A stretch of DNA of 64,000 nt. It comes from an uncultured virus (IMG/VR IMGVR_UViG_2834966965_000001). Lineage: Duplodnaviria > Heunggongvirae > Uroviricota > Caudoviricetes. The notes under the pieces were generated by a model, which saw only the letters and a program-made list of their open reading frames with translations, searched no databases and was not told where the DNA came from. The position numbers were made by a program, and so were the translations under genes. Numbering within the stretch: the first letter of the stretch is position 1; every line of letters begins with the position of its first letter. This document shows positions 15,410 to 43,611 of the stretch, piece by piece. The stretch lies in IMG/VR virus record IMGVR_UViG_2834966965_000001, one strand, 5' to 3'.

Positions 15410-15471
15410 TAATAATTATCTTAAAAATTGATTATAGGAGTTAGTGCATCGGTTGCTTACAGCTTCCATAG

Positions 15472-15516
15472 CTGGCAGTCAAAAGGTAGAGGGTTCGAAT
15501 CCCTCCGGCTCCACCA
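15472..15516 (+). repeat. att core: 3' half of tRNA-Ala(GGC), E1/E2 junction
   Basis: CTGGCAG anticodon loop, T-arm GAGGG-TTCGAAT-CCCTC, acceptor CGGCTCC-A-CCA (U70); identical to 43667-43711. Confidence 0.92.
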
Positions 15517-15553
15517 TAAAGCTAAAAGCGCTGTCGGTAGCTCGAAATGGCGC

Positions 15554-16552
15554 ATGAATGACCGTTTAACTCACAAAAATTCTTACGATTATCCAATCGT
15601 AGCTAGTGACCTTTTGACTACACCTGATGACCTCAGATTATGTCTTTCTACATATCTTCTGATGGCCAAGGTAGGGCAGCTTAGCCCTGCCACAATTTCA
15701 AATTACAGATATATGTGCGGCAAATTCGTTGATTTTTGCCAGGAGCACGGCGTTACTAAGCCGGCACAGATTACTTCGATACACCTCGGTTTATTCCTTC
15801 AGCAATTACAGTTAACCAACGGTCCGCAATCTGTCACTGATTATTTCAAGCAGATACGCCCATTTATCAATTGGCTCAAGGAAAATGGCCAGATTACGGT
15901 AGATCCATTAAAGCAGGTACGTTTACCCAAAGTACCCCGTAAAGTTATACAGCCGTTCACTCAGGAGCATTGCCAGCGGCTACTTTCCTTAGTGTCCGGG
16001 GAGACATTCGAGGATAAGAGGAATAAAGCACTTATTCTGTTATTGCTGGATACAGGCCTCAGACTGCGGGAATGCACAGAGTTAAAATGGAGTGATATCA
16101 ATTACGATAGTGAATTGGTTAAGGTTATGGGCAAAGGGGCTAAAGAACGGGTTGTACGTATAGGTCCTAAAGTTCAAAGAGCATTACTGGAATATCAGTA
16201 TCTTAAAATTCAGTCATTTCCCGGAGATAAGACCCTTGATGTTTGGGTTAGCCGGCACAAAACCCGCTATAGTGATAAAGAGTGCCACCCTTTAACTAAA
16301 AATGGCATCATGCAGACAATCGTCACGTTAGGAAAGCGGGCAGGTATTACAAATATCCGGTGCAGCCCTCATACATTCAGGCACACCTTCGCTACTATGT
16401 GCTTACGGAATGGGGCAGGGGAGTTTGAAGTTCAATCTCTCATGGGGCATAGCACTCTGACCCAGACTAGAAAATATGCTGCCAGCTTGAATTCTGAAGT
16501 AGCGGTTCAGGGGCATAAGAAGTTTAGCCCGGTTGATAATCTAAAGCTGTAA
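15554..16552 (+). CDS. Tyrosine recombinase/integrase of E2
   Basis: TGLRLRE, HTFRHTFA and MGHS...Y motifs; start placed at the ATG downstream of att by homology with 1-960. Confidence 0.93.
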   Translation: MNDRLTHKNSYDYPIVASDLLTTPDDLRLCLSTYLLMAKVGQLSPATISNYRYMCGKFVDFCQEHGVTKPAQITSIHLGLFLQQLQLTNGPQSVTDYFKQIRPFINWLKENGQITVDPLKQVRLPKVPRKVIQPFTQEHCQRLLSLVSGETFEDKRNKALILLLLDTGLRLRECTELKWSDINYDSELVKVMGKGAKERVVRIGPKVQRALLEYQYLKIQSFPGDKTLDVWVSRHKTRYSDKECHPLTKNGIMQTIVTLGKRAGITNIRCSPHTFRHTFATMCLRNGAGEFEVQSLMGHSTLTQTRKYAASLNSEVAVQGHKKFSPVDNLKL

Positions 16553-19201: not shown

Positions 19202-19238
19202 ATATGCGATATTAATAATACAGACAGGAGTAAAGAAT

Positions 19239-19586: not shown

Positions 19587-19604
19587 TAAAAAATGAGGAA
19601 GTAT

Positions 19605-19633
19605 AAAAGGCCGAGTAAAGCACTCGGCCTTTT
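19605..19633. terminator. Bidirectional intrinsic terminator
   Basis: AAAAGGCCGAGT/ACTCGGCCTTTT between convergent genes. Confidence 0.85.
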
Positions 19634-19663: not shown

Positions 19664-22600
19664 TCACATGCCTATAGACCGCCGGACACTCTTCGGGATA
19701 TATGGCTTAAACTTAGGCGCCTTAGTCTGGACAAACTTAATTTCAGGATTATCCTTCAAATTTATCTTAGCTGTAGTAACACCCATTTTTTGAGTAAGAT
19801 TGGTAGGCGGTTTTTTCCCCCGCGTAAAGAATGTTTCCTCAGGAGTACCTTCCAACCGGGTAGCCCCTTCCGGCGGACGGAAAACATATTCATGAGTGCC
19901 ATTGGCACGTTTTATTATCCAGACTGGGCGTTTATCATCACCGGTGCCCAGTTCCCCCTGTTTCCATGCCACATCGCCACTTTTTAGTCTTGGTTTACGG
20001 GTATCACTGTCTTTCTGGCTATCCGTGTGCTCTTTGCCGCCTTTGTAGTTAAAATCTGGCGGTTTAATACGAGATGGTTCAGCTCTAGGCAAGGAATTAT
20101 CTGGTGGATTAGTGGTAGGAACCCTCGGCGGTGGCACCCTTTCCCCTCTGGATGGAGGTATTCGGCTGCGCAGGCTAACATAATCGCCTCCGCCTGTGCG
20201 CAGTTTCCTTTCCAGTGTTTTAGCGGTGATTCTCGTTTTGCTCATATTACCAAAACCAGGCATACGTACCGGTAACTTGCGCAGCTCTTTTTCTATCAGC
20301 TTAGCACGGCGGTTTATTTCTTCTTCAAGACGGATTTTCTCCATCGCAGCCACTTTAGCAAGCCTACCAGCTATGACAAGAGCACTGGCTCGCCCATCCC
20401 GTCCGGCTGTCATGGCAGCTATACGGGCAGCAGACATAGACCGCTGTTCGGAACGCAGTAACTCCCTTACCTCAGGTATTAAATCAGGTGCTATTTGCCG
20501 GGCAGCTTCTAAACGGGCTGCGTTAGACATATTCCGTTCAGAAAGCAGATCTTCCAGTTTATCAGCCAGTTTAGGAGATTTCTCCCGTATCTCAGCCAGT
20601 AAAGCTTTTTGAGTATCCGCGTCAGCAGTAAAGACCTTCTCAATCTTGACAGTAAGCTCCGGGTTGGACTTGGCTAAGGCTTCATAATTGATTTTTTTCT
20701 GCAGGTTAGGGATAAAGATATCCCGTACTGTATTGTAGATACCACGAGCCTTTAGCTTATACAGATCTGCCAGAGAAGGGGCTTTGGCACCAATACCAAG
20801 ATCAAGCTCTCCGCCCAGTTTACTTACCATGGCGGTAAAACGATCCTGTTTTTCAAAGTTTGCCAAAGTTCGGTTTAACAGGCTGTAAAGCTGAGTGCTC
20901 GGGGCTTCCATAGTGATACCCTCAACCTTTACTGTATTGATGGGGGCATTCAGCTTTTTAAAACCGGCATCAATTTTCTTCCAGCCTAATTCAGATATAT
21001 CGGCGATGTTTTTCCATAAGCCATCTTTAAGCTGGGATACGGTATAGTGGGTAGCCACTTTACTTACTTTTACGTCATTTACAGTATAGCGGCGGGCTAT
21101 GTTGGCAATATCATTAGCCGTTTTCTCCGGGGTAGGAGACTGAATGTCCAAATCTCCGGGTTTTCTACCACCAGTAAACGTATATTCAGCAGTACTGCCA
21201 TACAGCACATTATCAGGATGCTGTCGCATATATGCTATGAAATCCTCATCCATTCCCCCAGGGAGTGATTCCACCTTGCCTATTACCTGGGAGAGCGGAC
21301 GAGGTTTAAGCATATCCGCTTTGCCGGCCAGTGCTCTGGTAATCTCCAAGCTCTTTTCAAACCAGTCTGGCGTAACCATTTGCAGCAGGGGGACGTTGAT
21401 TTTCTTGCCGTCCGGGCCAACAGTATTCAATACTATCGGTTTACCCTTATCATCCAGTACAGGTATAGCACGGCTGCCAGGAGTCATTAAGGCTTCGTCT
21501 TCTATGTACTTGGCATATTGCTTAAATACCGGGAATATTTCTCCTGTAGATTGATCACTTTTAACGTAACTCCACGCCTTGGATGCCATTTCATCCATAG
21601 TCCGGGCATCTGAAATTGCATTTGGCAGGCGTGATAATCCTGAATTATAGAAGATAGCAAAGGTAGGGGTTTCTTTAATCTGTCCAACTACTACCTTGCC
21701 CTCGCCATAGACTTTAGTACCGGGAGGCAGGAAGCCTACAACATTTGGAGTGGCTTTACCTATTACATTCCCTTTAAGGTCAACTATTTTCCCGCTGCCG
21801 TCTATCGTGCCTATCTTCTTACCGTTTTTATATACCGGCTGGTGAAAGTAAAACTCACCCAGCAACCTATCTCCGGCTACAATAGCGCCGCCAGGCTGAA
21901 TTTTAACTTCATACCGGGTACCGTCAGGCCGTACCAGATAAGCTTTGTTGTTTTCTATAGAGACTGTCCCGAGTTTGGTATTGTTTATAGATATGGCTTT
22001 GGAGTTATCGGCAATCTGGCCAATAATATTATTATGGCTATCAACCATTCTGCCGTTTTCGCCAATCTGCCCAACCAGAGTCTTATTATTGAAGACATAA
22101 CCGGGCGTTGCGCCTGTAGCCGTTCTGGAAGTCAGCCCAAGGTTCATATTGGGAGAGAGGAATAAGCCCTCATCTTTGGCCATGACACCTCTGGTAAATG
22201 GCTCTCCGAATGGAGTTGAATGTCCCACAGAATTTTTGAGTACCGTCTGAAATCCGGCGTCTGACCATTTAATTGTTCCTATCTCTGTACCATCTACCAG
22301 AATAGGTACAGATCCGGAGGCTTTACCTCCATTCCGAAGCATAATAGCTTCGTCCATAGCTTTAGTTGTATCTATGGCCGCTGGATTAGCCAATACCTTA
22401 GCTATATCCATAGTTTGGCTGCCTGAGCCACGCCAAAATGTGGCAGCTGGTAACTTAACTTTACTGAGCAATACTCCAAGAGGAGAGAAAATGGCTTTGG
22501 TCGTAGCTACGGGATGCAGGGCAGTTGTAATTGGCGCCACAATAAGTCCGCGTGTAGTCATAAGCGTTTCTTTAGCAATAGCTTTACCAACACCGATACC

Positions 22601-24376
22601 AGTCTTAGCTAAGGCGGAAACACCTCCGACAAAAGGCACGAATATTAATATATCGAGTGCGATGCTTCCTAAATTTGATAAGGATGTAAAATCATCTGCA
22701 AGCGTCCCTTTTTCTTTATCCTCCCAAAATGCTACCGTTCCAACTCCGGGTATCATGGAAATGCCTACGTTCTTCATGAACTCGCCCGGGTCTTTTTTAA
22801 AGGCCATGCCAATTTTTTCCATTAAATTGGCATCTTCATAATCAGATACGAACTCGGCATTTTTGAAATCGGTATCTGAAAGCCCAAACCACTTCTGCAG
22901 GATGCCTTTTCCCCATCCGTCAGACACAGCTTGCTGGATATCCACATTTCCAGTATCGTCAACATACTTGAGCAAGTATTTGATATCCACAGAATCGGCC
23001 TTCGACAAACCAACGGCCCTTTCAATCACATTATCAGGGATACCAGCTTTATAGGCTGCAAAAATATCAAAAGTCTGGGTATCTCCTTCTCCACGCATAA
23101 ATGGTTTTAAGGCAATAGCTTCAGAACTATTTCTAAGATTTTGGAGTGTAATCGTTTTCTGTGCTTCACGCATAGCCTGTTTGAGATTAGCTGAAGTAAT
23201 ATCATAGCCAACAATCTTTTTAAGCTCAGCAAAATACTGATCTGCATCTGCTTTGGGTAGGTACGCCCAATTGAAATTGGGGACGTTAAAAGGAATCTGC
23301 TCGTTTGAAGGCAATAAGCCAAGGCTGACCGCCACTTCATCAGGCATGCCGGGAGGTGCATTTTGACCTACGTTATACCCTGCATCCGGCGGCACATAGA
23401 CCGAATCAACTGGTATCAGCCCGTATTCAATCGCCTTTTTAAACTGGTCTTCAGGGGATAAACTTGAAAACTCTTTAGCATCTAAGAACGCCTTTAAAGC
23501 AGTTATATAAGCTAAAGATTGGTCGTTGCCTGCAATGATATTTTTAATCTCTTGGGTATTATCTATCAGATTACCAAATTCATCTGTCCGGGGAGCTCTT
23601 AATCCATCATTTCCCATTACATCCGGCATACGGCTGACGGCTTCCATGATGACATTTGCGGGTGCTCCGATGCTGGCGAGGTAGTTTGTTATATATTCGT
23701 GCATCTTGGCAGGGTCAGACCAGGCTAAGCCCGCCATAGGCACGGTGTAGACTGTGCCATTGGGGGTAGTAAACGTCCAAGCGGTAGAATTATCTACAGT
23801 CACCGAAACATTGTTATCGGTACCGGTGGTATCAGCGCTGTTATCGGTGCTGGTGTCAGAATCATTTACCGGTTCACCGATAAACCTCTTCCCGCTCCCA
23901 GCTGCTATACTTTCTTCTGTTATGGCAGTGAATTGTTTGCCACTGTCGGTCGCTTCACTCTCTGCAGTTATTGATGTGTAGTTCTTTGTGCTACTGTTAG
24001 GATCTGTGATAGTTATACTAGAGTTTTTCCCGATGACGTTTCCGGTTGTTATATCAGCTTTTATACCAGAGAATTGGTCTGCAACGGATTTAATAACAGC
24101 TGCAGATGCTCCGCGGCTAGTCAGATAATTAGTAACATATTGCAGAGTATCATCTTCTTGTCCGTTTATATTGATGTTATACACAGCGCCATCAGTGGCA
24201 ACCGTCAATTTACCATCTTTCAGTTTAACCGTAGCAATATTATTAAAGCCTGAATCAGCTGCTTGCTGGGCAGCTGCTTGGTTGATAATCGCTTTCTGAC
24301 TGGGTCTGTTAAGCATGATCATATTATTTTTCGGTGAACCAGACGCCGGGTTTGAAGGGTCAAATAATATCGCCAT
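19664..24376 (-). CDS. 1570-aa multidomain protein with nucleotidyltransferase-like motif
   Basis: Internal repeats, hydrophobic PGVG/PFVGG segment, G..IG beta repeats, LYGSTA...RKPGDLDI, coiled coil and basic tail. Confidence 0.85.
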   Translation of the reverse strand: MAILFDPSNPASGSPKNNMIMLNRPSQKAIINQAAAQQAADSGFNNIATVKLKDGKLTVATDGAVYNININGQEDDTLQYVTNYLTSRGASAAVIKSVADQFSGIKADITTGNVIGKNSSITITDPNSSTKNYTSITAESEATDSGKQFTAITEESIAAGSGKRFIGEPVNDSDTSTDNSADTTGTDNNVSVTVDNSTAWTFTTPNGTVYTVPMAGLAWSDPAKMHEYITNYLASIGAPANVIMEAVSRMPDVMGNDGLRAPRTDEFGNLIDNTQEIKNIIAGNDQSLAYITALKAFLDAKEFSSLSPEDQFKKAIEYGLIPVDSVYVPPDAGYNVGQNAPPGMPDEVAVSLGLLPSNEQIPFNVPNFNWAYLPKADADQYFAELKKIVGYDITSANLKQAMREAQKTITLQNLRNSSEAIALKPFMRGEGDTQTFDIFAAYKAGIPDNVIERAVGLSKADSVDIKYLLKYVDDTGNVDIQQAVSDGWGKGILQKWFGLSDTDFKNAEFVSDYEDANLMEKIGMAFKKDPGEFMKNVGISMIPGVGTVAFWEDKEKGTLADDFTSLSNLGSIALDILIFVPFVGGVSALAKTGIGVGKAIAKETLMTTRGLIVAPITTALHPVATTKAIFSPLGVLLSKVKLPAATFWRGSGSQTMDIAKVLANPAAIDTTKAMDEAIMLRNGGKASGSVPILVDGTEIGTIKWSDAGFQTVLKNSVGHSTPFGEPFTRGVMAKDEGLFLSPNMNLGLTSRTATGATPGYVFNNKTLVGQIGENGRMVDSHNNIIGQIADNSKAISINNTKLGTVSIENNKAYLVRPDGTRYEVKIQPGGAIVAGDRLLGEFYFHQPVYKNGKKIGTIDGSGKIVDLKGNVIGKATPNVVGFLPPGTKVYGEGKVVVGQIKETPTFAIFYNSGLSRLPNAISDARTMDEMASKAWSYVKSDQSTGEIFPVFKQYAKYIEDEALMTPGSRAIPVLDDKGKPIVLNTVGPDGKKINVPLLQMVTPDWFEKSLEITRALAGKADMLKPRPLSQVIGKVESLPGGMDEDFIAYMRQHPDNVLYGSTAEYTFTGGRKPGDLDIQSPTPEKTANDIANIARRYTVNDVKVSKVATHYTVSQLKDGLWKNIADISELGWKKIDAGFKKLNAPINTVKVEGITMEAPSTQLYSLLNRTLANFEKQDRFTAMVSKLGGELDLGIGAKAPSLADLYKLKARGIYNTVRDIFIPNLQKKINYEALAKSNPELTVKIEKVFTADADTQKALLAEIREKSPKLADKLEDLLSERNMSNAARLEAARQIAPDLIPEVRELLRSEQRSMSAARIAAMTAGRDGRASALVIAGRLAKVAAMEKIRLEEEINRRAKLIEKELRKLPVRMPGFGNMSKTRITAKTLERKLRTGGGDYVSLRSRIPPSRGERVPPPRVPTTNPPDNSLPRAEPSRIKPPDFNYKGGKEHTDSQKDSDTRKPRLKSGDVAWKQGELGTGDDKRPVWIIKRANGTHEYVFRPPEGATRLEGTPEETFFTRGKKPPTNLTQKMGVTTAKINLKDNPEIKFVQTKAPKFKPYIPKSVRRSIGM

Positions 24377-24379: not shown

Positions 24380-25399
24380 TCACCTCTCAGAATAAGGTTT
24401 AGACCAGGCATTCATTGCTGCCCTGGCTATCAAGTATAGGCCTGTAATTACCAGCGGCAGGGCTTTTAACACGGGTTTATCCATTGCAACGGGATCCACT
24501 ATTGAAAATCCATACATCATCAAAGCTACACCAGCAATGATATACATGATCGGATCTTGTTTAATAACAGCAATCGCTGTTATGGCCAAAACGATAATAA
24601 GGTAGAGCATATTCCCCTCCGTTGTTTGTTCTGAATAGTTAATTGATAAGCCGCAATTATTGACTGACCAGGCTCTGTAATATGTAGTTCCAAAATACGT
24701 AACAATATCAGTGTCTATTACGCTTGTACTTGTACCCCGGTAGACCAGTTCTCCGTCATTAATATCCTGAGGATATCCGGCATGCCCACGGACTACTATT
24801 GTCTCTGTGGCTCCAGCTCCGGGTATCCATGAGATGAGTGCGTTATTCCCCTGATATGTGACCTCGAGAGTGGCGGGCTGTAATGGCAAATCAGCGGCAG
24901 GATCTATAAATTCCCAGGCGGAATTTTCGTTATCTGTATAGCTGGTGTCTCCAACTGATATGGTTAGTATGCCGGAGCTGGCCCACCCATCGTCTCCATA
25001 AACCAAGCGGGGGACGATACGCGCCTCAATAACAGTTATGCCGGCGCCTTGTCCGTAGAGATCATTAAAATGGCTGGGGAAAACAGCGTTCGATGTAATC
25101 TCAGTACGGTATTCGGTATCACTGTCTTTATATACCAGGTAAAGCGATAGTTCGTCATAATCGAGGGCATAATCCCCATGCTCTGCTAAAGCAGCTGATA
25201 CTGGCAACATACGGTCCTGAGCATAAGCTGCATTAGTAAGAGTCAGGCGAAACACGATATTGGTTGATGAGGCTTCCTGACAACTAAACTGAGTTGTTAG
25301 CCAACTTGCGGCCGCAATTGGTGCGGGGGTAATACAGAAGCTGAGGGTTGAGGTAGATACCAAAACCACCAGCAGTAGTCTCAATAACCATTTATTCAC
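24380..25399 (-). CDS. Signal peptide + FN3-like ectodomain + three-TM membrane protein
   Basis: ISW.PG...YYRAWSVN FN3-like pattern; C-terminal TMs. Confidence 0.78.
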   Translation of the reverse strand: MNKWLLRLLLVVLVSTSTLSFCITPAPIAAASWLTTQFSCQEASSTNIVFRLTLTNAAYAQDRMLPVSAALAEHGDYALDYDELSLYLVYKDSDTEYRTEITSNAVFPSHFNDLYGQGAGITVIEARIVPRLVYGDDGWASSGILTISVGDTSYTDNENSAWEFIDPAADLPLQPATLEVTYQGNNALISWIPGAGATETIVVRGHAGYPQDINDGELVYRGTSTSVIDTDIVTYFGTTYYRAWSVNNCGLSINYSEQTTEGNMLYLIIVLAITAIAVIKQDPIMYIIAGVALMMYGFSIVDPVAMDKPVLKALPLVITGLYLIARAAMNAWSKPYSER

Positions 25400-25659
25400 G
25401 CTTCAAGCCCTTCAAATTTAGCCTGTAAAATGAGTTTCCTGCTTAGTTTTCTACGGGACCTTATGTACCAGACCATTACCCCCAGATGAGAAAATATAAA
25501 TATTCCTACGGATGCGACGGCCAGTGTTTCGAACATGTTTATTATTGCGAATACGAATAATGCTATTGAGGTAACCATTGCCAGGCTATAATAAAGCGAA
25601 AAGCGATTATTAAGTCGGCCGCTTGCGATGGCTTGAAAATCTTTGTCTGTAAGTTTCAT
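25396..25659 (-). CDS. Small two-TM protein
   Basis: Operonic overlap; hydrophobic segments. Confidence 0.65.
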   Translation of the reverse strand: MKLTDKDFQAIASGRLNNRFSLYYSLAMVTSIALFVFAIINMFETLAVASVGIFIFSHLGVMVWYIRSRRKLSRKLILQAKFEGLEA

Positions 25660-25663
25660 ATTC

Positions 25664-26461
25664 TTATACTTCCTTTTTTAACCGGCGGCCAACACGGCCG
25701 ACAGTCGCGATATCCAGTCCTTTTTCTGCCAGTGAAGTCAGTAACCCTGCATCTGCTTCTTGGAAATCCACCTCACCTATTGGAGATGGTCCCGAAGCAG
25801 ATGCTTTAAGTTCTTCCATTGAAGGATTGCGTCTGAGATCAATAATATCCTGCTGTTTTTTGATTACAATTTGTCTTTGGCCTTCAAATATATCAATGAC
25901 GTTATAGCTGCGATAATAAGGGAATATTCCCCTGGGAGATAATATCTTGGTACCCATATCAGACCATGGTTTGCCGGTCACAAATCCTTTGCAGTCCAGC
26001 GTCCTCAATAAAAAGAATTTACCGCGGGATATGTGATTAGCTTTGCCCCATGGGGTGTAATACATATCGGTGCAAATGGTGAGAAAATGGGTTAGCCAAC
26101 GCATACGGTCATAGAGCCACATCCAGTTTTGCAGTGTGTAGAACATACCCAAACCAAGTTTGCGGCGCTGCATGCCGACATACCCGGTAAGCTGATTGAT
26201 AACCGTCATGTGACGGGATGAATCGTTAAACTGCTGGATTTCATCAATATCAACAATCACACTCTTAAGTGACCGGGACATGGTGACTAGTTCGTGGATT
26301 TCTATTTGTTTAACAGGGCGATATGTCAGGGGAGTGTATAGATCATACCCGGGGAAAACTCGGCACTCACCACCCAAGGCCATATGAAGTTCTGAGAAAT
26401 ATGTCATGGCGGTAGTTTTACCGCCGCCTTCAGGTCCTATGAAGCCCCAAATAGCTACCAT
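25664..26461 (-). CDS. Zot/pI-like morphogenesis ATPase
   Basis: GPEGGGKTT, IVDIDEIQ and QRRK...FYTLQ motifs; start may extend to 26518. Confidence 0.82.
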   Translation of the reverse strand: MVAIWGFIGPEGGGKTTAMTYFSELHMALGGECRVFPGYDLYTPLTYRPVKQIEIHELVTMSRSLKSVIVDIDEIQQFNDSSRHMTVINQLTGYVGMQRRKLGLGMFYTLQNWMWLYDRMRWLTHFLTICTDMYYTPWGKANHISRGKFFLLRTLDCKGFVTGKPWSDMGTKILSPRGIFPYYRSYNVIDIFEGQRQIVIKKQQDIIDLRRNPSMEELKASASGPSPIGEVDFQEADAGLLTSLAEKGLDIATVGRVGRRLKKEV

Positions 26462-26871
26462 TGGTTTAAATCCTTGGGCGGGCCGCCCTTTTGACCATTC
26501 TGATTGTTGCCTTTCCATTTGAAATGCTGACCAATACCGATTTCTACCAGCTGATCACGACTCCTACCGCCAACTGAAACATTGGCCGCAAGCCACGTGC
26601 GCAGGGCTTCGATACCGTCATCATTCTCAAATTCCTGGCATAACGCAAGATACTGGCAGGCAGCATTTTTCTGCCGTTCATCCTTGAAAGTGGTCCGCAT
26701 CATAAGTTTTGCTAGATCATCGCCCGGGTTGACCAGATCACCGGCTATTGATGGAGTATTTACGTTTTGCAGCATTCCTTCGAGTTTATCGAGGGTTAAA
26801 CCGGTCTTAGGCGGGCTATCTGTTCCCGCAATTCCGAATTCTTCAATGTTATCGTTTAATTCTTCGACCAT
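26455..26871 (-). CDS. Morphogenesis-module hypothetical protein
   Basis: Directly upstream of the ATPase; VSVGGRSRDQLV motif. Confidence 0.7.
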   Translation of the reverse strand: MVEELNDNIEEFGIAGTDSPPKTGLTLDKLEGMLQNVNTPSIAGDLVNPGDDLAKLMMRTTFKDERQKNAACQYLALCQEFENDDGIEALRTWLAANVSVGGRSRDQLVEIGIGQHFKWKGNNQNGQKGGPPKDLNQW

Positions 26872-26872
26872 G

Positions 26873-27265
26873 CTAAGCTCCTATTGACGAAGAGAATATG
26901 ATTACTACCAAGAAAGCGATTGCCGCAAATAGTGCCCACATGGCACCGATCTTGAGTTTTTTCCAAACATCGCTGTTTCCGCCCCAGATTGGTTTTACTT
27001 GGGGAGAAAAAGCTTTTAGCCCTCTGTAAAGGCTTGAGGGCAGGGTTTTTATAGTTTTTGGTAGCTCCGGTTCTATATATGAAACTGCACCATCGCTGGA
27101 AGTTTGCTTAATTACCAAATACATCCAGTGGTCTTTGAACAGTACTTTTCTCGCGTTATGAGGTATATCAGCAATTGGAACTGACTGTTGTTTCCAACCT
27201 ATTATTGGATCAATAACAACTGCTGTTGTAGTCTGTGATTCAGCTTTTTTTAATATATTTACCAT
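26873..27265 (-). CDS. C-terminally membrane-anchored protein
   Basis: C-terminal TM; operonic. Confidence 0.72.
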   Translation of the reverse strand: MVNILKKAESQTTTAVVIDPIIGWKQQSVPIADIPHNARKVLFKDHWMYLVIKQTSSDGAVSYIEPELPKTIKTLPSSLYRGLKAFSPQVKPIWGGNSDVWKKLKIGAMWALFAAIAFLVVIIFSSSIGA

Positions 27266-27699
27266 GGTAATTTAACCTTCCCTGCTGAAATGAGGCCTAT
27301 CACCATAAGAACGATGATAAATCCGGCGCCACCAAATATCAGAGTCTGCAAAATATCAAACAGCCGGTTTTCTTTTTCTTCAAAATTGAGGTTAAAGCGG
27401 GATTTCTTATCAGCTTCACCTGATATTTTTACGGTTAATTTATGTGATTCTTCAGCCAACTTGTTGGCATTGATTGAAATAGCAATGGGCGCTACGTCTC
27501 GCTCACAAACCAGCTGGTAGGGCATGCCACTGCCAGCTTTGGGAAATGAGTCCGAACCTAGCGCCCATGCTTGCCGAGCTTTATCGTCTATCACGCAAGC
27601 CACATCAACCGGCAGACCAAGGTCCAGCAACCTCCTATCTTCAGTTAATAGAAGGATTCCATGCCGTCTTTTTTGCTGCCAGATTTTCATATAGCTCAT
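27259..27699 (-). CDS. C-terminally membrane-anchored protein
   Basis: C-terminal TM; operonic. Confidence 0.72.
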   Translation of the reverse strand: MSYMKIWQQKRRHGILLLTEDRRLLDLGLPVDVACVIDDKARQAWALGSDSFPKAGSGMPYQLVCERDVAPIAISINANKLAEESHKLTVKISGEADKKSRFNLNFEEKENRLFDILQTLIFGGAGFIIVLMVIGLISAGKVKLPW

Positions 27700-27708
27700 T
27701 AAGTGAGA

Positions 27709-27963
27709 TTAACGAAGCCCGCCGCCGTGCCCATCGCCGCCGCGTATACCCTTAACACCGCTGAAGGCCAAGAACCCAGCGCCACCCAGACCAAACAGCC
27801 AGAGAATGGCAGGAGTCAGCTTCAGGAACACATCAAAGCTGGTGTAATCCGCGATATGAGTGTCAGCCCGAAGGATAGCCAACTGGTCCAATACGGGTAC
27901 GGTCAGGATCGACAGCACAAACACTATGCCAATGGCTCCAAAAATACGCATCCAATTTCCCAC
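27709..27963 (-). CDS. Putative major coat protein (two-helix hydrophobic hairpin, 84 aa)
   Basis: Very strong SD AGGAGGTGA; helix-Pro-loop-LKLTP-helix with a basic/Gly tail. Confidence 0.7.
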   Translation of the reverse strand: MGNWMRIFGAIGIVFVLSILTVPVLDQLAILRADTHIADYTSFDVFLKLTPAILWLFGLGGAGFLAFSGVKGIRGGDGHGGGLR

Positions 27964-28004
27964 TTAATTCACCTCCTTTCATTTAGTAATAAAAATTGTT
28001 ACTA

Positions 28005-28460
28005 TTAGCTCTGCCTATGGAATAATGCCCAAACAGAGCCACCGATAAGAGCAAAAACACCAAACAGTATAAGGACAGGAGTCCAGCCGACAAACAAACT
28101 CATCATGGTCCACTCTTCCAGAGCATCCATGTCGTAATTGATAGTGAGTGTCCGTGTTTCACTTTGGGTAAGCCCTGTTACCTCAAGAGTCCTGGTTGCG
28201 GCGGTATAAGTGCCGGCAACTGGTACATCGGTTAGAACGGTTGAGGTTATTGATGTAACTGATGTTGCCCGGTCTCTATATAATTCATTCACCAATACCA
28301 CGTCTGCACTGGTTTCGCCTACCCCTGTGGTTACGGCTGTTTTAGCTTCGGATACAGTGTCTACCTGCAAATCATGAGCTGAATCAGTGAATACAGGCAT
28401 AACGCTAAAAATAGCCACAACACCGAAAGCTGCCACGATGATGCCAATAATTTGCTTCAA
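28005..28460 (-). CDS. Coat-protein paralogue with inserted Thr/Val-rich beta domain (151 aa)
   Basis: TTG start after GGAGGTGA; same two hydrophobic helices (VMP...WTPVL) with a long insert between them. Confidence 0.68.
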   Translation of the reverse strand: MKQIIGIIVAAFGVVAIFSVMPVFTDSAHDLQVDTVSEAKTAVTTGVGETSADVVLVNELYRDRATSVTSITSTVLTDVPVAGTYTAATRTLEVTGLTQSETRTLTINYDMDALEEWTMMSLFVGWTPVLILFGVFALIGGSVWALFHRQS

Positions 28461-28615
28461 ATACTTCTCACCTCCTCTCCTTATAATTTGGTTTTGAAGC
28501 ATTTTATCTTGCATTTTGGGCGTACTGAGCCGTTCATCGGCTCTCATTTTCCAAACAATACTATTAAATATATAAAAACCCTTTACCTTTTGATTTGAGT
28601 GAGTAAACTAGTGCT

Positions 28616-28891
28616 ATGAAAATGAAACTGAAGAATGAAAGACAACAGAGGAGTGAGCCCTTCGTACTTACTACGGTGGGTGAGGCTATCACTGAGCTGG
28701 AATTATTTAAGGATGATGTGAAGGTTGTGCTTGAACACTACAAACGCAGTCCGGCAGCCATGGCTAAGGTTGTTGGAGTGAACCGGCGTAAGATCCATGA
28801 TTGGCTTAGCGGCAGATCTTACCCTCGGGAACCAATAACGTTGTTGAGTATAATGAAATGTGCAAACAAAATACGGGCCTTAAAAAAATAG
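28616..28891 (+). CDS. HTH DNA-binding protein
   Basis: MAKVVGVNRRKIHDWLSGRSYP XRE-like motif. Confidence 0.7.
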   Translation: MKMKLKNERQQRSEPFVLTTVGEAITELELFKDDVKVVLEHYKRSPAAMAKVVGVNRRKIHDWLSGRSYPREPITLLSIMKCANKIRALKK

Positions 28892-29865
28892 CTCTCGGAC
28901 TGGTATTGGCGGTGACGTGCTTGGCTTGTCTGCCTGCGCCTGTGCTGGCTGTTGACCCGGCAACTCCTACTACATTTACCTTGGACTCGGTGCAGGTAGT
29001 TACCAACATACTTGAAGATGATGATATGGTTGTAGCTTTCCGTTACAACATCACCTACTCAAGCGGTCAGCCGTCTATCCCTGCTAATAAACTCTTTCAT
29101 TTTCGGCTGATGGATACTGACGGGATTACTCAGCTGGGAGCGATAGAACCTTACCCATACTATAATTCAGGTTATGGGCAGGGTTTTTCTGCCTTTTATT
29201 TTGCCGGCGATGCAGCTCCTGACTGGGAATCCGCTCTGGTGCTGAAAATGGTTGGAAACCCACAATATTGGGCCAGCCCGCCGGAAGTTAATTATACGCT
29301 GACCAGTGCTGATTACAGCCAGCTCTCTACCAGATCTGAGAATAGTTCCCTGCTGGGAAATTATATTATTGAGACCTGCCGCGACCTGGAAATAAACTGG
29401 TCTGTAAAATTGGTCACTGAAACTCCTCAGGGCACTATTTTAAACGATACAGGAGCTGCATATGGGCGTGGGACCATCCCAGGGCTACAGAACATGTGCC
29501 CTCAGATATTTTCTAGCCAGCAGCAGGTTATAGATATACCGGATCAGACATGGACTAACACCAAACTGAATGAGTGGATCCATCAGTTTGATGGAACAGT
29601 GGTAGGGGATGCCCTTATCGGCCTCTCAGATCTATTTTCAGTGTCATGGATAATACTAACCAGTCTGATCTGTGTAGTCCTGGTTATTTTGGTCTTTGTG
29701 TGGGGTATGCTGGCTTACTCTGATAATCAAGCAGCCATGGTTGCCGGCATCCGTATATTCTCCGGAGGGGCATTAATGGGTATTTTCCACCCGGCTGCCC
29801 TGGCATTAATAACTCTGGTTTATGCTGCTTACACCGCGTTTGTGATAATAGGAGATAAGGGATGA
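28858..29865 (+). CDS. Secreted-domain membrane protein, putative minor virion protein
   Basis: Signal peptide (PVLA-VD), beta-rich region, C-terminal TMs. Confidence 0.78.
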   Translation: MCKQNTGLKKIALGLVLAVTCLACLPAPVLAVDPATPTTFTLDSVQVVTNILEDDDMVVAFRYNITYSSGQPSIPANKLFHFRLMDTDGITQLGAIEPYPYYNSGYGQGFSAFYFAGDAAPDWESALVLKMVGNPQYWASPPEVNYTLTSADYSQLSTRSENSSLLGNYIIETCRDLEINWSVKLVTETPQGTILNDTGAAYGRGTIPGLQNMCPQIFSSQQQVIDIPDQTWTNTKLNEWIHQFDGTVVGDALIGLSDLFSVSWIILTSLICVVLVILVFVWGMLAYSDNQAAMVAGIRIFSGGALMGIFHPAALALITLVYAAYTAFVIIGDKG

Positions 29866-31598
29866 GAAAACTTAGGATACTCAGTTCCGGTGCTGTTCTG
29901 GGTACATTAGTTTGTATATTTACAGCCGGAGTAATCGCTGCTTCAACTATTACAGGTGCCTTATACCGGGCAGACATATCAGTGGCCAATATAAGCTACA
30001 CAGCAACAAAGGTATCTGTACCATTCACTTTTAATACGCAGAGCCTGCTTGATGGGCAATATATAAACTCCAGTTTCAGTAACGTAGTTATACGAGATTC
30101 GGCAGGGCAAGATATAGCTTTTATGCCTGGACAGGGGATTGATCCTTGGATTATGTGGGTCGAACAGATCAGCCAAAATTCGGCCTTGAATTATAGTCTT
30201 TATACCGGTGGAAATACTGCTATGGGTGGTAAATTGGCCTATTTCCCGGGTACATCTGGTATGACCGTGGCTGATGCTGCCAGTCTGGAACTGGGGAATA
30301 ATTTTGAGATTGAGTTATCTGGCTATTTTGAGAGTGGAAATATATGGAATAAGAGTCAGGTATTTGGTGTCCTTAATGATGCTTCGGGATTATCAGTATT
30401 CGGTTCGTCCTCAATTACTTATCAATATACATCTGGTACCGGTGTAATCGAGACAGTGCTAACAAATAATTGGGAAGGACAAACGTTTACTGCAACCAGC
30501 ACAAACTATGTGAGTGGCGTTGATTTATATGGAGCTAAGTATGGTAATCCCACAGGAAATTCTTACATCGCATTGTATGCTACCTCAGCGGGTTTCCCGA
30601 TTGGTTCCCCACTCACAGTTACTACGTTTGTTACTTCTACATGGACCAGTTCGTTGGAATTTCGCCATTATGATTTTAATGCTCCTGCAGTATTAACCAA
30701 TGGAGAAAAGTATGCATTAATACTGTACGTTGATAATGGGGATTCTAGCAATAATATACGATGGTATAAAGATGACACGTCACCTACATTTGCAGATGGT
30801 AATCGTGTATATAGTACCAATGGTGGCTCGTCTTGGACTAATGTCAGCGGTGAGGACTTTGGGTTCAAGATATATACAAATCCTATTATATGTAGCTATA
30901 GCCAATTGACTGGCGAACATACTATTAAAGTTACTTTAACTGCTGGAAATTCTTATTTATATGTAGATGGCGTGTTAGCTGACTCAGCTGCATTTGCAGG
31001 TTCCATTACTGATAATGCCAATGGCTGGGTTATCGGTGCAGGTGGCTCGATGCCTTATCTCTACTACGCCAAAATAACGGTGGGCGGGGTATTAAAAGGC
31101 TCGTGGGCATGGGAATACGCCGCCACATTCACAGATTTATCCGGTAATAGTAATGATGCCACGCCCTCATTCCGGACTACAACTACGGATGCAGACGTAA
31201 GCGCTTCAATAAAATCCTACAGTGCTATCAGCCAGTCATTGTCATCTATATCTGACGATGATGCTCCTAATGTCATTCCTGATATGCCAGAGGTGCCCTC
31301 AGGCTGGTTTACGGACCTACACCCAGAGACATTACCCGGTGGAACTGAAATAAATAATATGCTGATTGATGCGGATATCCCCCCTGGTGTCTTTTGGTAT
31401 CCTATGTGGTTTTTGGGTGGTACAGTAGTCGTTATGCTGGTGTTTGGAGTTAGCCGAAAAATATTACCGGCAGCAATGGGTGGTATTTCATGGGACATAT
31501 TCTGGTGTGCGGCAGTGGGTGTAGATTTTTGGGTTTTAATACCAAATAGCTTGGTGGCAATAGGGGAGATAGCCAACCGAAAGAAGCAGTCATTATGA
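29862..31598 (+). CDS. Putative spike / receptor-binding protein (LamG-like with inserted GQTFT domain)
   Basis: Signal peptide; LYVDG...DLSGNSND LamG-like motifs; C-terminal TMs. Confidence 0.8.
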   Translation: MRKLRILSSGAVLGTLVCIFTAGVIAASTITGALYRADISVANISYTATKVSVPFTFNTQSLLDGQYINSSFSNVVIRDSAGQDIAFMPGQGIDPWIMWVEQISQNSALNYSLYTGGNTAMGGKLAYFPGTSGMTVADAASLELGNNFEIELSGYFESGNIWNKSQVFGVLNDASGLSVFGSSSITYQYTSGTGVIETVLTNNWEGQTFTATSTNYVSGVDLYGAKYGNPTGNSYIALYATSAGFPIGSPLTVTTFVTSTWTSSLEFRHYDFNAPAVLTNGEKYALILYVDNGDSSNNIRWYKDDTSPTFADGNRVYSTNGGSSWTNVSGEDFGFKIYTNPIICSYSQLTGEHTIKVTLTAGNSYLYVDGVLADSAAFAGSITDNANGWVIGAGGSMPYLYYAKITVGGVLKGSWAWEYAATFTDLSGNSNDATPSFRTTTTDADVSASIKSYSAISQSLSSISDDDAPNVIPDMPEVPSGWFTDLHPETLPGGTEINNMLIDADIPPGVFWYPMWFLGGTVVVMLVFGVSRKILPAAMGGISWDIFWCAAVGVDFWVLIPNSLVAIGEIANRKKQSL

Positions 31599-31939
31599 GG
31601 CCACAATGGATCACATGGATTGTATTTACCTACCTGGTGGGGCAGGTTATGTGTCTGGTTTTGGAAGGTACATGGCTAGGCGCAGCTGATCAGTCTTTTC
31701 TCAATGCACTTCTTGGATTTACGGCTATCGAGTACACTGATAGTACAATTGCCAATGTAGGTATTACCGTGGTCAATATGGTAGCTGGAGCAGCTGGATT
31801 TTTTACTTATGCACTACCTAGATTATTGCTCTGGAATTACTCTTTTCTTGATGGTAGTTGGTTTTTAGCCAAGCTTTTCTTCTTATATCCTATTTCCGCC
31901 GGTACAATATTTGGCATATATACCTTATTTCGCAGGTAA
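31595..31939 (+). CDS. Small membrane protein
   Basis: ATGA overlap; counterpart of 7364-7660. Confidence 0.72.
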   Translation: MRPQWITWIVFTYLVGQVMCLVLEGTWLGAADQSFLNALLGFTAIEYTDSTIANVGITVVNMVAGAAGFFTYALPRLLLWNYSFLDGSWFLAKLFFLYPISAGTIFGIYTLFRR

Positions 31940-35563: not shown

Positions 35564-35806
35564 TTACGCTGAAGTAACAACAGACATTACCGTGGGAATC
35601 AATCGGATATAATCCTTCACTACAGCCCCCCCCGCTCGTCTTAATCTACAAATAGTGCAAAGCTCCTTTTGCTTTTGTCTTATAAAATCCTCGCCGAAAG
35701 CCTTTAAAATCTTGGCCTTAATCTCTTCCCTTTGTTTTGCCTGACGTGTTATCTGTGCTTTTGTGAACATTTGTTTATTTCCTCTCAAATTTAATATGGC
35801 GGTCAT
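35564..35806 (-). CDS. Hypothetical protein
   Basis: ATGA overlap with the resolvase stop; GAGGTGA SD. Confidence 0.5.
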   Translation of the reverse strand: MTAILNLRGNKQMFTKAQITRQAKQREEIKAKILKAFGEDFIRQKQKELCTICRLRRAGGAVVKDYIRLIPTVMSVVTSA

Positions 35807-36486
35807 GCCGTCACCTCTTCTTTTTCCATCTCTATGTCCACCAGCTGGGGAATTGTTAGGCCTTGAGCCTGGCACTCTCTTTGCAGCCGGATCTGGACAA
35901 ACCCCGGGGTCACTTTTTTACCAACCCACTTGCTGATAATCTCGGCCGCTGCGGAAAACTTCCTACCGCCTAGCTGATAGGCTTTACAAACTTTTGTGAT
36001 GTCAATATCTATGCGGGGCTTGCCGATTGGATTACCCGACTTAGTGCCGCACTTTTTTGCGTGCAGCATCCCCGCCATTGACCGCTCCCGGATGATGTCT
36101 CTTTCAAACTGAGCAAACCCTGCATAGATGGTAAAGATAAGGTCTCCGGCTGGACCGGCGACATTGAGCTCCGGCTGGGTCATAAAAACCATGTCTATAC
36201 CATAACCCCGTAAAATCTTTACGGTCCGCCAGGCCATCTCTATATCCCTGAAAGCCCGATCCATTTTCCAGACCACCAGGGCTTTATACTTTCGCTTGGC
36301 AGCGTCTTCCATGGACCGCGCCCAGGCCTTACGGTGGACGAAGTCACTGGCAGAAGCCAGATCTATATACTCTTCAGATATTTCCCAGTCCTGCCGCCGG
36401 CAATATTCACGGAGCTCGGCCAGCTGGACTTCCGGGTTCTGGTTCTTATCAACAGTGCTTACCCTGGCATATAACGCGACTTTCAC
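35803..36486 (-). CDS. Small serine recombinase (resolvase/invertase)
   Basis: ALYARVST, VWKMDR..R and FERDII.ER motifs. Confidence 0.92.
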   Translation of the reverse strand: MKVALYARVSTVDKNQNPEVQLAELREYCRRQDWEISEEYIDLASASDFVHRKAWARSMEDAAKRKYKALVVWKMDRAFRDIEMAWRTVKILRGYGIDMVFMTQPELNVAGPAGDLIFTIYAGFAQFERDIIRERSMAGMLHAKKCGTKSGNPIGKPRIDIDITKVCKAYQLGGRKFSAAAEIISKWVGKKVTPGFVQIRLQRECQAQGLTIPQLVDIEMEKEEVTA

Positions 36487-36796: not shown

Positions 36797-37032
36797 GTGC
36801 AAGAAATCTTGACAATTACGAATGAGTATTTTATTTTTAGCTTTAATATTTTCTTGCACTTCTCTTGCACCTATTATTAATTTAGCTTTATATTTTCTTG
36901 CACTTGTCTTGCACCTGTATTGCACTTCTCTTGCACTTCTTGCACCCTCTTGCACCCCCAAGGTGCAAGAAATTTTACGTTCAGATAATTTTTGGCTTAC
37001 GATTAAAAATAGTTTTCTTGCACTTCTTGCAC
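36797..37032. repeat. E2 replication origin: (C)TTGCAC iterons
   Basis: 10 forward and 2 inverted copies, often 11 bp apart, in AT-rich DNA just downstream of the primase-helicase. Confidence 0.82.
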
Positions 37033-42809: not shown

Positions 42810-42987
42810 GACAACTATTGTTGCATTAGCGCGCATATGGAGTCAAAATAGTAGAGCGGAAACTAGAGTAAATAATACTGTAGTTGCAATATGCTAAAGT
42901 ATTATGCATGGCACAATATCTCTTATTTTCTGCTGATATCGTGCAATTACTGCCTTAGTTATGCTACCATTGTTGCAGAGGGTTATT

Positions 42988-43611
42988 ATGGATATCCAGA
43001 TCGGGTTAAAGGTAAAACAATTAAGAATAGCCCGCGGCATGACACAAGCTAAACTTGCTGATGCAAGTGGTTTAACTCGCGGTTATATTTCGATGCTAGA
43101 GCTACGTAAAAGCACTATGCCTAGTTATGAGGCATTGTCAAAAATTGCACGAGCGCTTGGTGTTGATATTAAAGAGTTCAAAACAGATCCTGAGATAGTC
43201 AGGTTAGAATCTCCTGAAGAGGTTCTAAGAAAATACCAGCTTATGGCGCCAGTTAGTATTCCTGTATATGACCACTTTTATGTCCATGCAGGAGATGCTG
43301 CATTAGCTCCGATTGAGTATATTTACAGAGCGCGCGAGAGTTTTGCACCTCAGAATATAGAAGCTTATAAGGTGCGCGGTAATTGCATGGAACCCGTGAT
43401 AAGTGAAGGGGATATATTGCTTATAGATCGTGATAGAACCCCGCAAAAAGGCAATATACTGCTTTGTGTTGTAGATGGAGAAGTTATAGTAGGAAAATTG
43501 ATAGAGCAAAATGGTGAGCTTTATTTAAAAAATGGGCATGGAATACACTCTTTATCCGATTGTCAGGCAAGTGCTGTGGTAGTCGAAGTTAATAAAAAAT
43601 TAATCTTTTAA
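42988..43611 (+). CDS. CI/LexA-like repressor (XRE HTH + S24 domain)
   Basis: HTH, HAG and GNCMEP motifs; homologue of 10576-11205. Confidence 0.9.
   Translation: MDIQIGLKVKQLRIARGMTQAKLADASGLTRGYISMLELRKSTMPSYEALSKIARALGVDIKEFKTDPEIVRLESPEEVLRKYQLMAPVSIPVYDHFYVHAGDAALAPIEYIYRARESFAPQNIEAYKVRGNCMEPVISEGDILLIDRDRTPQKGNILLCVVDGEVIVGKLIEQNGELYLKNGHGIHSLSDCQASAVVVEVNKKLIF

Follow-up and report, generated by a model that had tools for sequence, protein, structure and literature searches.

The closest described relatives of the locus considered here are the IME1 elements of Dehalococcoides and Dehalogenimonas, which range from 20,930 to 28,058 bp and which, in the part of a preprint available to us, are proposed as a new lineage of budding, likely filamentous, non-tailed double-stranded DNA (dsDNA) viruses (Nesbo et al., bioRxiv 10.64898/2026.09.15.751708, dated 2026-10-01). 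The DNA that we analysed (the window) is a stretch of 64,000 nucleotides from an uncultured virus, IMG/VR record IMGVR_UViG_2834966965_000001, which holds three integrated elements in a row, named E1, E2 and E3. The subject of this text is E2 and, within it, positions 24380-31939. In the preprint, IME1 DNA was present at approximately 39,000-56,000x in viral fractions treated with DNase, compared with 30-400x for the background, circular IME1 episomes were recovered, and filaments and vesicles were seen by transmission electron microscopy (10.64898/2026.09.15.751708). The group HOG04 was given the role of a pI-like ATPase, and HOG00 and several HOG01 proteins matched VP1 of SSV1 by structure (10.64898/2026.09.15.751708). 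The elements, their circular forms and an inovirus-like classification had already been found in earlier work, the elements being named by Molenda et al. and given a Densinoviridae-like classification by Roux et al. (both as cited in 10.64898/2026.09.15.751708). No further paper on these elements was found in the literature searched. The kind of element and most of what the initial annotation of this DNA had concluded are therefore already in print, as far as the available text goes.

E2 is best explained as a temperate, non-tailed 28.2-kb virus of the IME1 type, integrated at the 3' end of a tRNA gene in Dehalococcoides, and positions 24380-31939 as its virion-biogenesis module. We give a probability of about 0.6 to the reading in which the shell consists of two paralogous hairpin proteins, one of them bearing a beta domain at the surface, and release is non-lytic and driven by a pI-like ATPase. 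The module consists of the following features, with open reading frame (ORF) coordinates given for the window and transmembrane (TM) segments taken from TM prediction:

19664..24376, minus strand: 1570-aa protein, last of the leftward operon, conserved in relatives (ORF)
24380..25399, minus strand: 339-aa membrane protein with an N-terminal hydrophobic segment and two C-terminal TM segments (ORF, TM prediction)
25396..25659, minus strand: 87-aa protein with one TM segment (ORF, TM prediction)
25664..26461, minus strand: pI/Zot-like P-loop ATPase, 265 aa from the conserved start, no TM segment (ORF and relatives)
26455..26871, minus strand: 138-aa soluble protein, the 'RDQ' protein (ORF, TM prediction)
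26873..27265, minus strand: 130-aa protein with a C-terminal TM anchor (ORF, TM prediction, conserved order)
27259..27699, minus strand: 146-aa protein with a C-terminal TM anchor (ORF, TM prediction, conserved order)
27709..27963, minus strand: small hairpin protein, 84 aa, with two TM helices, an acidic loop and a basic C-tail; candidate shell protein
28005..28460, minus strand: large hairpin protein, 151 aa, with two helices and an 80-residue beta domain in the loop; first leftward gene
28461..28615, no strand: divergent intergenic region of 155 nt between the operons, presumed promoter/operator (gene layout)
28616..28891, plus strand: 91-aa helix-turn-helix (HTH) protein, first rightward gene, position conserved (HTH_31, phrog_2328)
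28858..29865, plus strand: 335-aa membrane protein with an N-terminal hydrophobic segment and four C-terminal TM segments (ORF, TM prediction)
29862..31598, plus strand: 578-aa 'spike' with an N-terminal hydrophobic segment, a central lectin-like beta domain and C-terminal TM segments
31595..31939, plus strand: 114-aa protein with three TM segments (ORF, TM prediction, conserved order)

The leftward operon thus runs from the large and the small hairpin through the 146-, 130- and 138-aa proteins to the ATPase and the 87-, 339- and 1570-aa proteins, with neighbouring stops and starts that overlap or almost touch, and the rightward operon (28616-31939, plus strand) runs from the HTH protein through the 335- and 578-aa proteins to the 114-aa protein.

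Both hairpin genes are preceded by a near-perfect Shine-Dalgarno sequence. The gene of the 84-aa form has a GTG start with GAAAGGAGGTGA 5 nt upstream, and that of the 151-aa form has a TTG start preceded by AAGGAGAGGAGGTGA. A 180-aa version of the large hairpin ORF was set aside, as it is the 151-aa form that is used in 153 relatives and in the record of the window itself. TM prediction found two hydrophobic helices in each protein, so the ORFs, the strong Shine-Dalgarno sequences and the two-helix architectures described in the initial annotation are all present in the sequence. The motif LKLTP occupies residues 47-51 of the 84-aa protein, and the 80-residue insert of the 151-aa protein consists of Thr and Val to 39%, compared with 17% in the remainder.

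The two window proteins did not match each other in BLASTP, and the 84-aa protein matched the large-form orthologue of a related locus at 1.7e-4. The profile-profile comparison with hhalign was decisive: alignments of five sequences gave 97.9% (E 5e-13) and alignments of 37 and 46 sequences gave 98.8% (E 5e-17), with both helices aligned across one insertion of ~77 residues in the large form. Because of this comparison, the two hairpin proteins are, as judged from sequence profiles, paralogues which differ by one acidic, Thr/Val-rich insertion of ~80 residues, as had been suggested before. Both forms have a proline near the end of helix 1 and another near the start of helix 2, which is preceded by the motif (D/N)-x-x-(D/E)-(Y/F/W)-T.

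The hairpins belong to a family with at least four architectures. When the small-form profile was searched against 1.84 billion representatives, 101 proteins were found at E <=0.001, including single hairpins of ~80 aa, tandem double hairpins of ~160 aa with two matched stretches, N-extended proteins of 98-130 aa with a basic extension, and the large form. The large form itself was found in 153 clusters, nearly all of 144-165 aa, and together these numbers bear out the suggestion that a whole family of such viruses exists.

With a 46-sequence alignment, AlphaFold2 modelled the large form at a mean pLDDT of 92.5, with a helix at residues 2-32, six strands within 33-112 and a helix at 120-150; the small form was modelled as a helical hairpin with a pLDDT of 85.5. 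The charges of the two forms are conserved. The C-tail of the small form has a mean net charge of +4.65 and is at or above +2 in 37/37 relatives, and its loop is net negative in 34 of the 37, while the loop/beta domain of the large form averages a net charge of -11.2, with negative values in 46/46 relatives. The positive-inside rule is well established for membrane proteins, and because of this rule and the charge pattern, the hairpins are predicted to be inserted with both termini inside and the loop or the beta domain outside. The outer side is predicted to become the particle surface after extrusion or budding. For the insert, which the initial annotation had taken to be a surface decoration domain, the confident model of a beta domain and its uniformly negative charge agree with this idea, and its position at the surface would be a reasonable expectation. 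In inoviruses, the C-terminus of pVIII contacts the DNA; this analogy suggests that the basic C-tail of the small hairpin could be placed to meet DNA. A coat function of both proteins is what we infer from these features.

Fuselloviruses encode VP1 and a paralogue of it, VP3, and the analogy with these proteins, which had been drawn before, holds as a resemblance. Among 177,635 distinct PDB sequences, VP1 of SSV19 (7xdi_A) was the top match of the small-form profile (E 0.081, 15.8 bits), with profile positions 7-71 aligned to residues 19-83 as 65 collinear residues, both prolines aligned, in a match that shows compositional bias. In a structural search of 48,161 chains, the same chain ranked first for the large-form model (Z 8.8, rmsd (root-mean-square deviation) 1.6 A, 69/69 residues aligned), for which it was the sole chain with Z >=8 (the runner-up had 7.7), and third for the small-form model (Z 8.1, rmsd 2.3 A). 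These Z values are to be read with the caution that a common helical arrangement alone can reach Z ~13. Fuselloviridae VP1 and the E2 hairpins share a hydrophobic helix-turn-helix of ~70 residues with an aligned proline in each helix, and in both systems two paralogous copies lie side by side. In contrast, the sequence similarity is not significant (E 0.08), the hosts are an archaeon and a bacterium, no other fusellovirus gene was recognised in E2, and the large paralogue of E2 has an 80-residue beta domain which the 84-residue VP1 chain of 7xdi cannot contain. The resemblance of the hairpins to VP1 is real, and the evidence is suggestive, not conclusive, as to whether it reflects homology or convergence.

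For the ATPase, the start is likely at 26461 (265 aa), which is M20 of the ORF and the start in all 14 aligned relatives. The Pfam family Zot was reached by 5/15 members of the ATPase family (best 3.2e-6). Against the PDB, the family profile matched 2r2a (E 0.042) over 122 profile positions, the sole match that reached past the P-loop region; this entry, listed as 'Uncharacterized protein', we take to be the N-terminal domain of Zot. The hhalign comparison with the morphogenesis protein of the Thermus filamentous phage OH3 gave 80.5% (E 1.3e-5, 183 columns). A morphogenesis ATPase of the pI/Zot type, as expected in Tubulavirales, is therefore found at the level of the family, the window protein alone being below threshold. 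Neither the E2 ATPase nor the large hairpin had a match at E <=0.01 when 50,697 phage records were searched by tblastn.

The module is a conserved unit, beyond chance, because its gene order recurs in related loci, which were drawn from a Dehalogenimonas metagenome-assembled genome (L001), IMG/VR and metagenomes. The small hairpin directly follows the large one in 21/24 loci with the large form (19/22 distinct contigs, as two contigs were counted twice), and the three exceptions are contigs which end at the large-hairpin gene or <= ~310 nt past it. The order through the ATPase was seen in 12/12 loci that are long enough, and the divergent block of HTH, 335-, 578- and 114-aa proteins is present wherever the left flank exists. 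The search for recurring synteny that had been proposed for this module thus found it. Homologues of the 1570-aa protein occur in the related loci L001, L005, L007, L010 and L016; this protein gave no Pfam, PHROG or NCBIfam family and no usable ESM Atlas match. The 335-aa protein is 59-63% identical in relatives, and the conservation of the 339-aa protein among relatives is confined to its C-terminal part. The 91-aa protein matched HTH_31 at 0.0039, under the Pfam cut-off, and the repressor family phrog_2328 at 0.0024. An NCBIfam scan of 12 module proteins gave nothing meaningful, and among the 33 ORFs of E2 neither Pfam nor PHROG detected a tailed-phage capsid, portal or terminase family or an endolysin-like family. 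In the divergent intergenic region, there is a perfect GAGCCG-N5-CGGCTC palindrome (28527-28543), scored as a terminator-like site, which is a possible operator for the 91-aa HTH protein.

The limits of E2 and its genes outside the module allow a direct comparison with IME1 elements:

15469..15516, plus strand: left attachment (att) repeat, 48 nt, a pseudo-tRNA with T-arm, 3' strand of the acceptor and CCA (direct repeat)
15428..16552, plus strand: tyrosine recombinase, first gene of E2 (PF00589, 6.8e-29)
35803..36486, minus strand: serine resolvase of the replication/maintenance module of E2 (PF00239, 1.6e-33)
37086..39683, minus strand: primase-helicase with CHC2 zinc finger, Toprim and DUF927 (Pfam)
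42961..43611, plus strand: terminal LexA/CI-like repressor with HTH_3 and S24 peptidase (Pfam)
43664..43711, plus strand: right att repeat, where the tRNA 3' fragment recurs (direct repeat)

The two 48-nt direct repeats are identical at 47/48 positions and their starts are 28,195 bp apart, so the figure given earlier for a circle of this size is a real spacing. In the 64-kb window, ARAGORN found no whole tRNA or tmRNA, and no Rfam family reached the gathering threshold. In four public sequencing runs from three studies, there are contigs whose match to E2 starts at ~15472 and which show loose ends at 15471-15472 and 15516-15517. Two of these runs have, to the left of 15472, sequence that supplies the rest of an anticodon stem enclosing the loop 15472-15478. 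This loop reads as the anticodon GGC (Ala), in a tRNA recognised by eye with no tool call. Because the repeats correspond to the 3' part of a tRNA and the contigs complete its anticodon stem, E2 is integrated at a tRNA 3' end, here adjoining a pseudo-tRNA fragment. An assignment of the repeat to the 3' end of a tmRNA was dropped, as the public contigs continue in a tRNA-like manner. In the contigs of the same runs, the E1 part 9000-15002 is nearly without cover and E2 is covered; with no contig joining across the uncovered part, this gives no more than a hint that E2-like elements can occur where E1 is absent.

Five of the six features by which IME1 elements are recognised in the available part of the preprint were found in E2, and size alone differs (10.64898/2026.09.15.751708). 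These are the tRNA site, here as the repeated 48-nt tRNA 3' fragment; a tyrosine recombinase as the first coding sequence (CDS); a large CDS, here the 1570-aa ORF, in which the metallophosphoesterase family, an optional domain in the IME1 description, was not found (Pfam, E <=0.01); a bifunctional primase-helicase; and a terminal Cro/C1-type HTH repressor. The conserved IME1 virion module of a pI-like ATPase, five TM/hydrophobic proteins, a repressor and three membrane proteins is present in E2 as well. In E2, the primase-helicase matched Zn_ribbon_DnaG (1.3e-8) and DUF927 (3.1e-7), with Toprim under the cut-off, and the terminal repressor matched HTH_3 (1.9e-15) and Peptidase_S24 (3.1e-12) and stops 52 nt ahead of the right repeat. 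The length of 28,195 bp is outside the 23 +/- 2 kb given for IME1 and lies slightly above the reported range, by 137 bp over the largest reported element. In the text available, size is a soft screening criterion, and the surplus length of E2 sits in variable accessory regions. E2 and IME1 also share the host genus, the integration beside a tRNA or pseudo-tRNA, the order of the ATPase followed by the hydrophobic proteins, the repressor and the three membrane proteins on the opposite strand, and a resolvase. The GC content of E2 is ~44-46%, compared with 44-45% reported for IME1 (10.64898/2026.09.15.751708). Its nearest named relatives are in Dehalococcoides mccartyi (ATPase 99% and large hairpin 89% identity) and then in Dehalogenimonas, with proteins of which the E2 ATPase is 56-58% identical.

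Some further features of E2 lie outside the module. A cluster of direct repeats at 36843-37038, consisting of a 30-nt and a 26-nt family of TTGCAC(T/C) units, covers the 3' end of the primase-helicase gene and the stretch just downstream and is a candidate for the iterons or origin of E2. In a variable region, a tandem duplication (17886-19030; 276 nt at 92% and 95 nt at 80% identity) yields paralogous proteins of 134 and 153 aa that are 72% identical, and several alternative joints in public contigs within 16551-19608 indicate that this region varies between relatives. An accessory pair at 34694-35542 and 34297-34701 comprises a PAPS-reductase-like gene (phrog_424, 2.4e-36) and a nucleoside 2-deoxyribosyltransferase-like gene; a PAPS-reductase-like gene is mentioned for one IME1 in the available text (10.64898/2026.09.15.751708).

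Among viruses with a pI/Zot-type ATPase, E2 can be compared with Tubulavirales such as OH3 (Paulinoviridae, NC_045425.1). Besides the ATPase, both encode several short hydrophobic proteins in a cluster and a large protein of the adsorption type with a small TM protein after it, and for both a non-lytic release is presumed. OH3, however, is 5.7 kb and encodes the gpII endonuclease and gpV, whereas E2 is 28 kb and has a primase-helicase and no rolling-circle replication endonuclease; the gene VIII product of OH3 has ~46 aa, whereas the candidate coats of E2 are two-helix hairpins of 84 and 151 aa. Inoviruses package a small genome of ~4-11 kb, replicated by a gpII-type rolling-circle endonuclease, as single-stranded DNA and have a short single-helix major coat protein. 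Neither such a small, gpII-replicated genome nor such a coat protein was found in E2: no Rep family was detected in this element, while E1 has a gpII-like gene.

E1 spans positions 1-15468 of the window, and its minus-strand ORFs include 4267-5418, 5687-6232, 7660-9252, 9329-9667 and 9720-10112. Its order is hairpin (9329-9667), spike (7660-9252), small TM protein (7364-7660), TM proteins, a 108-aa RDQ protein and ATPase (5687-6232), where the hairpin in the coat position is a 112-aa protein with two TM segments, the spike has 530 aa and the ATPase 181 aa. A 383-aa protein of E1 matched the gene II replication endonuclease in five records of Thermus filamentous phages (tblastn 5e-14 to 3e-9) at ~25% identity, with 69% coverage in four of the five records and 52% in the fifth. 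E1 also encodes a single-stranded DNA-binding protein, and its gene positions fit the V-VIII-III-VI-...-I pattern of OH3. Our best reading of E1 is an inovirus-type prophage, and that of E2 is a far larger relative with the same assembly strategy. The ATPase of E1 is very rare: three clusters were found in a search of 5.8 billion proteins and no distinct locus in IMG/VR, where the gpII-like protein gave no pattern match either.

The initial annotation had described the E2 module as a second, divergent version of that in E1, with an RDQ-motif protein in both and with E1 counterparts of the spike and the small TM protein, and had named a lack of homology between the modules as what would speak against it. 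Homology was detected, for the ATPase and the spike domain. In BLASTP between E1 and E2, the sole match was the central domain of the spikes (530 aa vs 578 aa; 27% over 151 residues, E 2e-8). This domain also occurs in a 405-aa protein of E3 (BLASTP 2e-11) and, at ~1e-6, in the tailed-phage families phrog_877 and phrog_5986, with weak signals of DUF4082, Lectin_like and Laminin_G_3; since E3 and PHROGs of tailed phages have it as well, it is promiscuous. The hhalign comparison of the two ATPases gave 42-57% with single E1 sequences and 88% (E 3e-6, 155 columns) with three, and on these profiles a homology of the ATPases is probable for almost the full length of the E1 protein. The 112-aa hairpin of E1 has the same architecture and is the top-scoring E1 partner of both E2 hairpin families, yet hhalign gave only 3-12%, and only 11% for the N-extended variants. 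The RDQ proteins showed no similarity (hhalign 0.2%), and RDQ is not conserved in relatives of E2, in which the position reads REQ or RIN, so the shared motif was not upheld. The small TM proteins 3' of the spikes are unrelated in sequence (hhalign 0.6%) and similar in position only, and the spike and its neighbour lie within the same operon in E1 and in the divergent operon in E2. In the whole matrix of 7 E2 families and 6 E1 proteins, the ATPase pair alone stood out, with the non-hairpin rest at <=2%. A counterpart in E1 is thus a matter of position or architecture for most pairs, and homology is demonstrable for the ATPase and the spike domain only. Taken as a whole, the earlier inference was largely correct and its observation real, including the same gene order; the idea is not new, and the links to E1 through RDQ, the small TM proteins and the hairpins are not supported.

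One might further suppose, as a tentative idea that we regard as doubtful, that E1 and E2, in tandem at one tRNA site, are two ends of one lineage, with E2 as a 28-kb derivative that has a primase-helicase, kept a homologous ATPase and spike domain and duplicated the hairpin, one copy of which acquired a surface beta domain, and with a link to VP1 if the hairpins are homologous to it.

Other features of E1 are a low-GC stretch at its right end (11000-15409; 29-34% vs ~44%) with genes for a PLD-like nuclease (11281-12066), a 191-aa ORF and an 859-aa AAA/TPR protein (12830-15409), possibly defence cargo, and a transposase pair of insertion sequence type (1760-2970; HTH_Tnp_1 orfA, rve orfB) with an HNH endonuclease and a DNA methylase nearby.

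Several points weigh against the proposed shell and release functions. To our knowledge, E2, with 28 kb and a primase-helicase, is unlike any characterised filamentous bacterial virus. The matches to VP1 are weak in absolute terms and none is significant alone (E 0.08, Z <13), and two designed hairpins tie with 7xdi_A for the small form. Foldseek searches with both hairpin models against PDB and BFVD gave nothing at E <=0.001 (large form: best 0.078 in PDB and 7.6e-3 in BFVD; small form: best E 1.0 in BFVD); VP1_SSV1 was outside the best 50 BFVD matches, and the top BFVD matches of the large form were mostly ~80-100 columns with uncharacterised, tail-fibre or structural tailed-phage proteins. 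An hmmscan of PHROGs likewise gave no VP1-family match for either hairpin. The window ATPase alone stays below Pfam Zot (best AAA 0.024, ABC_tran 0.25) and, unlike the canonical pI, which carries its own TM segment, and unlike its equivalents in Tubulavirales, none was predicted in it; the two tail-anchored proteins encoded just upstream might supply its link to the membrane. The module proteins are predicted components of a particle, and in the available part of the preprint particle morphology and packaged nucleic acid are left unresolved and a helper virus is considered possible (10.64898/2026.09.15.751708).

Many of the module proteins are integral membrane proteins, with type-I-like spikes, and the host is reported to lack a cell wall; both would also suit pleomorphic membrane-vesicle virions like those of pleolipoviruses or plasmaviruses, in which the hairpins are internal or matrix proteins of the envelope, the 578-aa protein is a fusion or adsorption spike and the ATPase is a packaging or accessory NTPase. 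A Halorubrum genome locus that the ATPase matches weakly and in the P-loop only (53 residues at 39%, E 1e-4) points in the same direction, as do the abundant vesicles seen besides filaments and a genome unlinked to one particle type in the available text (10.64898/2026.09.15.751708). However, the ATPase matches the inovirus-type pI/Zot past the P-loop, the geometry of the hairpins fits the lipid-poor protein shell of SSV19 VP1 best, and the basic tail of the small hairpin suggests direct contact with DNA, so that virions of this type are unlikely. E2 could instead be a satellite or mobilisable island in need of a helper virus, with a membrane module for surface modification or superinfection exclusion. 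No recognisable capsid fold was found in the 33 E2 ORFs, and a nature as satellite or phage-inducible chromosomal island was proposed in earlier work, with an unidentified helper possible, according to the available text (10.64898/2026.09.15.751708). A conserved module of ten-plus genes with a morphogenesis-type ATPase argues against this, and we regard a satellite as rather improbable.

The small size, two TM helices and highly basic C-tail are those of textbook class II holins, and the small two-TM proteins could thus have a non-structural role, either like holins or in membrane remodelling, and make the membrane permeable or cause it to bud. This is hard to reconcile with the lack of an endolysin-like family in E2, with the strong Shine-Dalgarno sequences and first operon position, which fit abundant products, with the conserved folded ectodomain of one paralogue, and with a capsid protein as the best solved match; no evidence of host lysis is reported in the text available (10.64898/2026.09.15.751708). 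We consider a holin-like role improbable, and even more so a conjugation or secretion apparatus with the hairpins as VirB2-like pilins and the ATPase as transfer motor. Pilins of the VirB2 type are two-helix hydrophobic hairpins too, and a small protein of this kind shares an operon with a P-loop ATPase both in conjugative type IV secretion systems (T4SS) and in E2. A match to T4SS components (VirB2/VirB4) had been named beforehand as an outcome that would overturn the viral interpretation; among the 33 E2 ORFs, no VirB4, coupling-protein (VirD4), relaxase or VirB6 family was found (Pfam, E <=0.01), the ATPase is small (265 aa) and Zot-like, and the DNA was in DNase-protected extracellular fractions in the preprint as available (10.64898/2026.09.15.751708). 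A T4SS is effectively excluded.

Returning to the virion-biogenesis module with a hairpin shell, we infer the topology, the roles of the individual proteins and the shape of the particle from the gene content, paralogy, models, conservation and ATPase family observed here. Two divergent, tightly packed operons would start from the 155-nt intergenic region 28461-28615. The leftward operon would open with two highly translated, paralogous membrane hairpins, both N-in/C-in, of which the small one would expose a short acidic loop outside and contact the DNA inside with its basic tail, and the large one would expose its acidic beta domain outside. Both hairpins together could enclose the DNA in a hydrophobic shell, similar to that of VP1/VP3 in fuselloviruses. 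They would be followed by the two tail-anchored proteins, the soluble protein and the anchor-less pI/Zot-like ATPase, the latter powering DNA loading and extrusion at the membrane. From the rightward operon would come a small HTH regulator and a polytopic membrane protein, together with a small TM protein and a spike that would use its lectin domain in adsorption. Particles would then leave the cell without lysis, by extrusion or budding, and no secretin would be needed in a host without an outer membrane.

The third element, E3 (43663-64000), begins at the right att repeat of E2. Its gene for a large serine recombinase overlaps the repeat at the 3' end, and it further encodes a Gp3-like recombination directionality factor, a DUF3854/DUF927 primase-helicase, a resolvase, a methylase/specificity fusion and an Mrr-like endonuclease. 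An unannotated block (57301-64000) holds paralogues of 245 and 248 aa (43% identical, E 2e-57), the 405-aa protein with the lectin-like domain of the E1 and E2 spikes, and a 766-aa protein with four copies of a repeat unit of ~354 nt. E3 may be another non-tailed virus.

To summarise, the sequence of E2 mainly confirms the public claim on IME1 independently. It is added here that both candidate shell proteins belong to a single family, in which the large form has an ectodomain inserted into its loop, that further hairpin architectures exist (tandem double and N-extended) and that a small inovirus-like element, E1, is a neighbour; in the available part of the preprint, the VP1-like groups are not stated to be paralogues with a loop insertion, and neither tandem-hairpin variants nor an E1-type neighbour are mentioned (10.64898/2026.09.15.751708). 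Antibodies, virion proteomics and cryo-electron microscopy could readily be directed at the inserted beta domain. The ATPase of E1 is the closest outside relative found for that of E2, and E1 may help to place the IME1 elements in virus evolution. If the hairpins are true homologues of VP1, a shared shell protein would link bacterial filamentous phages and archaeal spindle viruses, and if so, these elements would provide a bacterial system for testing the transition from a single-stranded DNA filament to a dsDNA budding virus. IME1-type elements appear to combine an assembly ATPase of the inovirus type with a hydrophobic shell protein like that of archaeal viruses, in non-tailed viruses of bacteria used in bioremediation.

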